Assembly (NCBI GenBank): GCA_023380305.1
Contig: JAMCQZ010000008.1
Coordinates: forward strand, 71,588 to 120,658
DNA: 49,071 bases
Origin: Patescibacteria group bacterium
GTDB taxonomy: Bacteria > Patescibacteriota > Minisyncoccia > UBA6257 > Colwellbacteraceae
Direction: 5' to 3'
The notes below the pieces were generated by a model that saw only the letters and a program-made list of their open reading frames with translations, was not told the DNA's origin and ran no database searches. The position numbers and the translations under genes were made by a program. Shown here one piece after another: positions 10,969-12,476 of this stretch. Position 1 is the first letter of the stretch. Each line of letters starts with the position of its first letter.

Positions 10969-12476
10969 AATTTAATTGATTCACGCACAGCTTCCGCTAC
11001 ACGTGCCTTGTTACGACTTAGCCCATGTCACCGAATTCGAACTTATTCCACCGAAGTGAAACTTCATTCGCCCCCGGCTCCCCTGGCTTGACGGGCAGTG
11101 AGTACAAGACTCGAGAACGTATTCACCGCAGTATAGCTGACCTGCGATTACTAGCGATTCCGGCTTCATGAGGGCGAGTTGCAGCCCTCAATCTGAACTG
11201 AGATTAATTTTAAGGATTAGCTCCGCCTTACGGCTTGGCAACCCGTTGTATTAACCATTGTATTATGAGTGTGGCCCAGGGCATCAGAGGGCCATGCGGA
11301 TTTGACGTCGTCCCCACCTTCCTCCTTGAAAAACAAGGCAGTTTCGCGTGACACATATAACACGCAATAGGGGTTGCGCTCGTTACCCAACTTAATGGAA
11401 CATCTCACGACACGAGCTGACGACAACCATGCAGCACCTGTGCTTGCGGTCCTTGAGAGAATTTCCGCATTTCTGCAGACTTTCCGCAAACATTTCAAGC
11501 CCTGGTAAGGTTCTTCGTTTACTATCGAATTAAACCTCATAATCCACCGCTTGTGCGAGTCTCCGTCTATTCCTTTGAGTTTTAGCCTTGCGGCCGTACT
11601 TCCCAGGCGGTCTACTTAACGCGTTGGCTACGCCACTCCGAGGGTCGATACTCGAAACAGCTAGTAGACATAGTTTAGGGCGTGGACTACAAGGGTATCT
11701 AATCCTTTTTGCTCCCCACGCTTTCGTGTTTCAGGGTCAGGAATGCGCCAGTTTGCTGCCTTCGCCTTTGGTGTTCCACATGATATCAACGGATGTCACC
11801 CCTACACCATGTGTTCCGCAAACCTCTCGCATCCTCTAGTTTCGCCGTATCCCCCGCACTTCCGCCGTTGAGCGGCGGTCTTTAACAGGAGACGCACAAA
11901 ACCCCCTACACACCCTTTACGCCCAATAAATCCGGATAACGCTTGAAGCCTACGTATTACCGCGGCTGCTGGCACGTAGTTTGCAGCTTCTTATTCCTAC
12001 GGTACCGTCATTGTATTCTTCCCGTAGAAAAGCAGTTTACAATCCGAGGACCTTCTTCCTGCACGCGGCGTCGCTCCATCAGGCTTTCGCCCATTGTGGA
12101 ATATTCTCGACTGCTGCCACCCGTAGGTGTACGAACCGTGTCTCAGTTTCGTCGTTGGGGGTCAGCCTCTCAGCTCCCCTACCGGTCATCGCCTTGGTAG
12201 GCCGTTACCCTACCAACTAGCTGATCGGACCTAGGCCGATTTCGAAGTGGCTTGCGCCTTTACCCTTGCGGGACCATTGGGGATTACCTAACCTTTCGGC
12301 TAGCTATACCCATCTTCGATGTACGTACCAAGGTGTTACTAACTCGTTCGCCGCTATCTCTTTTTATCCGTTCATTTGATGTAATCTCACGTCCTTCAAA
12401 AAAGAAATCGCTCGACTTGCATGCCTTATCCACGCCGCCAGCGTTCATCCTGAGCTAGGATCAAACTCTCATTAAA
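10969..12476 (-). rRNA. rrs: 16S ribosomal RNA (stand-alone, CPR-like, anti-SD absent)
   Basis: Minus strand has AGAGTTTGATCCTAGCTCAG, ACACCTACGGGTGGCAGCAG, GTGCCAGCAGCCGCGGTAA, ATTAGATACCC, AAGTCGTAACAAGG and an intact helix 45 with a GGAA loop. Ends were estimated by analogy with E. coli numbering. Confidence 0.98.

Follow-up and report, generated by a model that had tools for sequence, protein, structure and literature searches.

A 16S rRNA tail without anti-Shine–Dalgarno sequence in a Parcubacteria-type genome, and its loss together with the rpsU Shine–Dalgarno site across the class

[quoted passage not shown] That CCUCC is near-invariant even where mRNAs lack Shine–Dalgarno (SD) sequences constitutes an open question, and the comparative result presented here bears on it. 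The closest described case is that of the Parcubacteria, 48% of which possess the anti-SD motif according to the sections of Tsurumaki 2022 (RNA 28:1041, PMC9297842) drawn upon here; in the same account, anti-SD loss in the group overlaps loss of the ribosomal protein uL1. Since absence of the motif from about half of the Parcubacteria has already been published (PMC9297842), the tail loss in the genome studied here is a known trait: the group is the same, and CCTCCT is absent from the 13-nt tail in both. Like most anti-SD-less Parcubacteria lineages in that account, this genome also lacks uL1 (no match to PF00687 in a draft that is 97% complete, with 14 of 14 controls positive). The sections of PMC9297842 in question treat the absence of the motif only, and the test of mRNA starts, the sequence of the tail, and the link to rpsU and to bS21 length come from the present analysis. 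A functional counterpart is provided by Flavobacterium johnsoniae, where, according to parts of Jha 2021 (PMC7797042), McNutt 2023 (PMC9976891), Naeem 2026 (PMC13000453), and PMC10798248, the anti-SD is sequestered, rpsU (encoding bS21) alone carries a strong SD, and ribosomes lacking bS21 translate rpsU. According to a section of PMC13000453, Flavobacterium from which the anti-SD has been removed largely recovers when rpsU starts without an SD.

The window, the whole stretch of 49,071 nucleotides that was analysed, belongs to a genome of 543,954 bases in 11 contigs, that of an ultra-small Parcubacteria-type bacterium. Its 16S rRNA gene (Table 1) matches Rfam RF00177 over the full model with 1415.9 bits. 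It is single copy, and a second copy bearing CCTCC, which the first-pass annotation had named as refuting its reading, was not found by blastn in the 11 contigs. The 23S gene is unlinked and resides on another contig (G000:C10:25396-28350). What the first-pass annotation had read at the 3′ end of the gene holds on inspection: helix 45 is paired, and no CCTCC follows it before the processing stem, the next one on the same strand starting only at 10731, within the downstream response-regulator gene and past the 3′ processing arm. The two arms of the predicted stem form about 23 pairs. From the sequence of this region it is inferred that the mature 16S rRNA ends in the tail given in Table 1. RNA contigs of run X16 end at 10971, and no inference on the 3′ end is drawn from them because DNA contigs end there too. 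The gene stands alone, flanked by rpmE on one side and on the other by a response regulator accompanied by type IV pilus genes. The 70-nt trailer between tail and processing stem (10899-10968, minus strand) folds into hairpins, and a trailer motif, G(A/T)GGA(G/T)C, recurs in 23 of 119 related loci. Elsewhere in the window (22159-27063, minus strand), a 1634-aa protein with three lamin-tail domains is encoded.

Table 1. Features of the 16S rRNA locus, with positions in the window.
Feature	Position	Strand	Basis
16S rRNA gene, single copy	10969..12476	-	Rfam RF00177 and blastn
Conserved anchor AAGTCGTAACAAGG ahead of helix 45	11006..11019	-	sequence
Helix 45 stem-loop CACGTGTAGC-GGAA-GCTGTGCGTG	10982..11005	-	fold: 10 pairs, 3 G-U, -10.8 kcal/mol
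13-nt tail AATCAATTAAATT, replacing GATCACCTCCTTT	10969..10981	-	sequence and comparison of relatives
3′ arm of predicted 16S processing stem	10876..10898	-	fold of both flanks
5′ arm of predicted 16S processing stem	12574..12596	-	fold of both flanks
Predicted sigma-70 promoter of stand-alone 16S (TTGACA, 17 nt, TATTAT)	12672..12700	-	read from sequence

Start regions were analysed genome-wide after 526 genes had been called by a simple hexamer model without ribosome-binding-site term; the starts are those of this caller, 18 of whose 19 high-confidence starts in E. coli match the annotation. SD 4-mers precede 18 of 307 high-confidence starts as against 19.2 ± 3.3 in shuffled sequence, and the same pipeline finds them ahead of 29 of 66 starts in E. 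coli (10.5 ± 2.9 shuffled). The G content at -13 to -6 is 13% here and 35% in E. coli. Inside genes, GGAGG occurs 633 times where 747 are expected (0.85), the E. coli figures being 28 and 93 (0.30). With SDs not enriched at starts and GGAGG barely avoided in genes, the anti-SD appears to play no part in initiation and hardly any in elongation. The proposal of SD-independent initiation made in the first-pass annotation is supported by this test and its positive E. coli control. Its further remark on SD-free sequence ahead of the ATGs in the window agrees with the 37 of 39 called window genes that lack an SD at or below -8 kcal/mol, and the pairing scan of starts against the native tail that it had called for returned a mean of -0.79 kcal/mol, equal to shuffles. 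Strong GGAGG enrichment before starts was named in that annotation as evidence against its proposal, and a small exception touches on this point: GGAGG precedes 8 of 307 starts where 1.2 are expected. The GGAGG-led starts belong to accessory or orphan genes. In 13 of 446 genes, the energy of pairing with the canonical tail is -10 kcal/mol or lower. Textbook SDs stand ahead of accessory or orphan genes at G000:C11:15038-17081, C8:53988-58247, C8:194282-194803, and C5:14467-15081, some of these genes being paralogue triplets. Sixteen SD-led ORFs were scanned, including one of the three C11 paralogues, and 12 have no Pfam family; the other four encode a ThyX-like protein, a SigE/SigK-like sigma factor, a polysaccharide deacetylase, and a weak DUF match. 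Similar SD-led genes are present in other tail-less genomes, and it may be guessed that they were acquired from SD-using donors.

The combination of a CCUCC-free tail with starts devoid of SD signal suggests that initiation likely proceeds without mRNA–rRNA pairing. Ribosomes of this kind would initiate at unstructured A/U-rich starts, in part on predicted leaderless transcripts, and closely spaced genes may be served by re-initiation. A -10-like hexamer starts at -14 to -12 in 39 of 204 leading genes, compared with 5.8 ± 2.3 in shuffled sequence (maximum 14 in 500) and with 1 of 62 leading genes in E. coli; a box at this place would leave the transcript a leader of 0-2 nt. Nine of the 39 boxes are accompanied by a -35-like match and ten by TGn. 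This leaderless signature, found in one fifth of the leading genes, also occurs in a CCUCC-keeping member of the class (G223, 10/63). Close spacing is common, 197 of 446 genes beginning at most 25 nt from the upstream gene on the same strand, which is compatible with re-initiation. The starts themselves are A/U-rich and little structured (-1.3 vs -4.5 kcal/mol at internal ATGs). Low structure and an A at -3 were rejected as special features of this genome: being equally marked in E. coli, they are permissive and not specific.

CCUCC had been described in the first-pass annotation as lost in only a few bacterial lineages. This is true across bacteria, where the loss is rare, CCTCC being kept in 84 of 86 genomes outside the class; within the class, the loss is common and published. 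The anchor was matched in 154 of 241 class genomes, and of the 147 listed, CCTCC is retained by 60 and missing from 87, as counted by eye; the tails include intermediates such as TCTCC and CTTCT. Scarcity of SDs was sampled in 100-200 kb from each of 12 class members. In four CCUCC-keeping genomes, SD 5-mers stand before 2/89, 8/73, 1/59, and 1/66 starts, and G287 displays a mild enrichment (8 vs 2.0). Because CCUCC-keeping members are SD-poor as well, the lack of SDs at starts does not follow from the change of tail.

A different picture emerges for rpsU. Sixty genomes were chosen by the analyst to span families and tail types from the 147 listed and the earlier relatives, tail classes being assigned by eye, and an SD was counted as strong when its pairing with the canonical tail reached -8 kcal/mol or lower. 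Strong SDs precede rpsU in 19 of 20 CCUCC genomes, in 2 of 13 with partial tails, in none of 8 with weak tails, and in none of 18 in which the tail is lost; neither G026, counted separately because no start had been called for it, nor the present genome has one, so that weak and lost tails together amount to 0/28. In the latter genome, rpsU pairs at -0.4 kcal/mol with the canonical and at -0.5 kcal/mol with the native tail, the mean in CCUCC genomes being -13.5 kcal/mol. The CCUCC genomes were also scored for eight other ribosomal protein genes plus ssb, and 3 of these 150 cases reach -8. Outside the class, rpsU was matched in 25 of 30 genomes and carries a strong SD in 20 of these 25, compared with 2 of 25 other ribosomal protein genes in five genomes. 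CCUCC is kept without an rpsU SD in G080. One locus, L261 (G150), combines the tail GAATTTCTCCTTT with AAAGGAGAA ahead of rpsU, an apparent compensatory pair. On a quick tree built from seven ribosomal proteins of the 60 class genomes (G001 left out) and 5 outgroups, 9 changes of state are counted for the tail and 11 for the rpsU SD. The two states agree in 57 of 60 tips, a value reached by none of 5000 simulations of independent loss under each of four settings. Independent pairs number three on well-supported branches (concordant with few exceptions, p 0.25), which is too small a number for the sign test, and nine on all branches. Tail loss thus goes together with loss of the rpsU SD across the class. 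The C-terminus of bS21 follows the same trend. Its extension past a conserved KLG has a median length of 17 aa in genomes with CCUCC and of 3 aa where it is lost (lengths uncorrected for kinship), and it contains at least two acidic residues in 19/20 CCUCC genomes vs 1/19 of those that have lost it; in this genome, the extension amounts to two residues. Weak-tail genomes have kept a long extension (median 15.5 aa) with the rpsU SD gone. A literature search covering the main texts of mostly open papers found no paper on rpsU SDs in Patescibacteria, and the main texts of PMC9976891, PMC10798248, and PMC7797042 do not mention Patescibacteria, Parcubacteria or CPR. Tail loss as such being already known, the contribution made here is to tie it to the rpsU SD and to the C-terminus of bS21.

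The genome encodes bS1 (369 aa), bS18, bS21, and KsgA, the latter matching TIGR00755 over the cut-off; the bS21 match, at 25 bits, lies under the Pfam cut-off of 27. Other users of the tail are missing. RbfA was not found in the 97%-complete draft, nor was Era over the cut-off; a section of PMC12641178 notes that conservation of both era and rbfA is poor across CPR. RF2 (G000:C5:30228-30947), with 239 aa, has no N-terminal domain, and the SD-assisted frameshift of prfB is therefore absent, as the part that would hold it is missing. The same truncation of RF2 is seen in G223, G026, and G047. In RF1 (window 13087-13818, minus strand; 243 aa), the match to TIGR00019 begins only at position 113 and no space remains upstream, so that both class-I release factors of this genome lack the N-terminal domain. 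The CTT-TGA frameshift site of prfB persists in the lost-tail loci L392 (G190), L390 (G058), L383 (G154), and L389 (G082). As a test of the tail, the frameshift was rejected: it is inapplicable where RF2 is truncated, and the site occurs in relatives with and without CCUCC and thus does not track the tail.

The missing CCTCC might reflect an assembly error, a pseudogene, or a second, canonical 16S copy absent from the assembly, as the genome is a draft in 11 contigs of 97% completeness. Such an artefact is exceedingly improbable given how widely the tail is shared. The tail is identical in G001, a member of the same genus, and of the same type throughout the order: of 40 order-level relatives searched, 27 were matched and 5 of these loci fell short of the anchor, and the sister-genome comparison proposed at the outset found CCTCC in none of the 22 with a readable tail and AATTA in 19. 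Tail positions 2, 5, 6, and 8 are invariant in these 22, and conservation falls after about position 13. An 817-nt contig from another study (run X4) spans 10903-11060 with three differences, the listed one falling within helix 45 (10986) and none being given for the tail; run X3, which may be the source sample, covers 10612-10986 without differences, and the contigs of runs X1 and X2 yielded no matching pieces across the tail. The full-length Rfam match of a gene equipped with promoter and processing stem and the SD-free starts genome-wide argue in the same direction. A scan of genome contigs for this helix 45 plus tail found 119 loci, of about 260 estimated in total. Named records with the same combination refer to Wolfebacteria, Liptonbacteria, Harrisonbacteria, Jorgensenbacteria, Colwellbacteria, and Paceibacterota, a minority naming other groups; by these names and its 544-kb genome, the host falls in the Parcubacteria/Paceibacteria. 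Comparison of sequences thus confirms the missing CCTCC as inherited and not an assembly error. The conservation of AAUUA in 19/22 order relatives, and in the estimated 260 or so stretches with the pattern, could instead indicate a new anti-SD that pairs with an A/U-rich UAAUU ahead of start codons. TAATT does precede 31/307 starts vs 14 expected (19/221 vs 8.8 once genes with a -10 box are removed), and TTAAT (227 vs 323) and TAATTG (23 vs 39) are depleted in genes. This is nevertheless improbable, if less so than an artefact. The TAATT excess consists largely of TATAATT or a TAA stop, and inside genes TAATT is about as frequent as expected (188 vs 182). The mean pairing of the native tail, no different from shuffles as noted above, is flat along position, 46 of 60 permuted tails pair equally well (8/60 after masking -10-box genes), the best native-tail site of the genome reaches -6.0 with rpsU ranking 301 of 526, and own-tail pairing exceeds shuffled values in none of five other lost-tail genomes. 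A variant SD complementary to the variant tail, of the ASD2/ASD3 type, was seen neither at rpsU nor at other genes. Replacement by the new tail was rejected on the ground that its pairing with starts is not above that of shuffles or permuted tails.

The reading favoured here, at a probability of roughly 0.7, combines a working 16S rRNA free of CCUCC and initiation free of pairing with a history in two steps, the order of which is inferred. The class would initially have dropped SDs for most genes and kept CCUCC mainly for rpsU, which was likely the main remaining use of the anti-SD before its loss, and the very strong SD of rpsU would have formed a feedback loop resembling that of Flavobacterium. 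Subsequently, several lineages including this order would have lost the rpsU SD, the CCUCC core, and the acidic C-terminal extension of bS21 together, which suggests that such a loop was repeatedly dismantled. A stronger form of this account holds that the Patescibacteria evolved or kept, independently of the Bacteroidota, an anti-SD serving chiefly a bS21 circuit, and that the circuit (CCUCC, extended rpsU SD, acidic bS21 C-terminus) came apart as a whole on about nine occasions in the Paceibacteria, this genome being an end state with a conserved replacement tail; we regard the chances for and against it as evenly balanced. The tail and the rpsU SD may also have decayed together merely as SD use fell, the rpsU SD having served good translation without any bS21-gated feedback. 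Joint loss is to be expected wherever an SD has been deprived of its partner, reduced genomes have lost the anti-SD repeatedly (a part of Nikolaeva 2021, PMC7782861), and some accessory genes likewise carry strong SDs; moreover, the bS21 comparison with the Bacteroidia covers the C-terminal extension, whereas the residues that sequester the tail in the latter are bS21 Tyr54, bS18 Phe50/Asn56, and the bS6 C-terminal helix. Yet other highly expressed ribosomal protein genes of the same genomes do without SDs, the mean pairing of rpsU equals the level at which autoregulation has been predicted in Bacteroidota, to judge from the portion of that work considered and bearing in mind that the energy calculations differ, and the bS21 C-terminus shortens with tail loss. 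Decay without feedback hence appears rather unlikely, albeit a more serious contender than artefact or replacement. If true, the circuit would account both for the persistence of the anti-SD in SD-poor bacteria and for the conditions under which it can be lost. The question is becoming testable, since a member of the Patescibacteria grows in a two-strain co-culture (from a section of PMC12281837).

Compared with known systems, the genome combines features of several. With the reduced symbionts and other bacteria treated by Amin 2018 (PMC6107228) and Nikolaeva 2021 (PMC7782861), it shares the lack of CCUCC, the lack of matching SDs, and a small genome; those sets are drawn from Bacteroidetes, Tenericutes, and Proteobacteria, and the word Parcubacteria is absent from both main texts. 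The CCUCC-keeping relatives resemble F. johnsoniae in being SD-poor with a retained anti-SD, an unusually strong rpsU SD, and a less basic bS21 C-terminus: as in the Bacteroidia, the rpsU SD stands out, here against eight ribosomal protein genes, amid genome-wide SD scarcity. The likeness to the Bacteroidia loop is drawn from SD use, the rpsU SD, and the bS21 extension, and tail sequestration would be a putative feature in Patescibacteria. The present genome, in contrast, possesses neither an anti-SD nor an rpsU SD and so cannot run a bS21 loop; an extended rpsU SD paired with an intact or compensated tail is not seen in it. While variant tails of the Flavobacteriales keep pairing by compensation, both partners have been lost here. 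The class as a whole forms a natural series of tails, running from CCUCC through UCUCC and CUUCU to entirely A/U-rich ones, along which the rpsU SD and the C-terminus of bS21 change with the rRNA, and this series mirrors the engineered Flavobacterium rescue described in part of PMC13000453.
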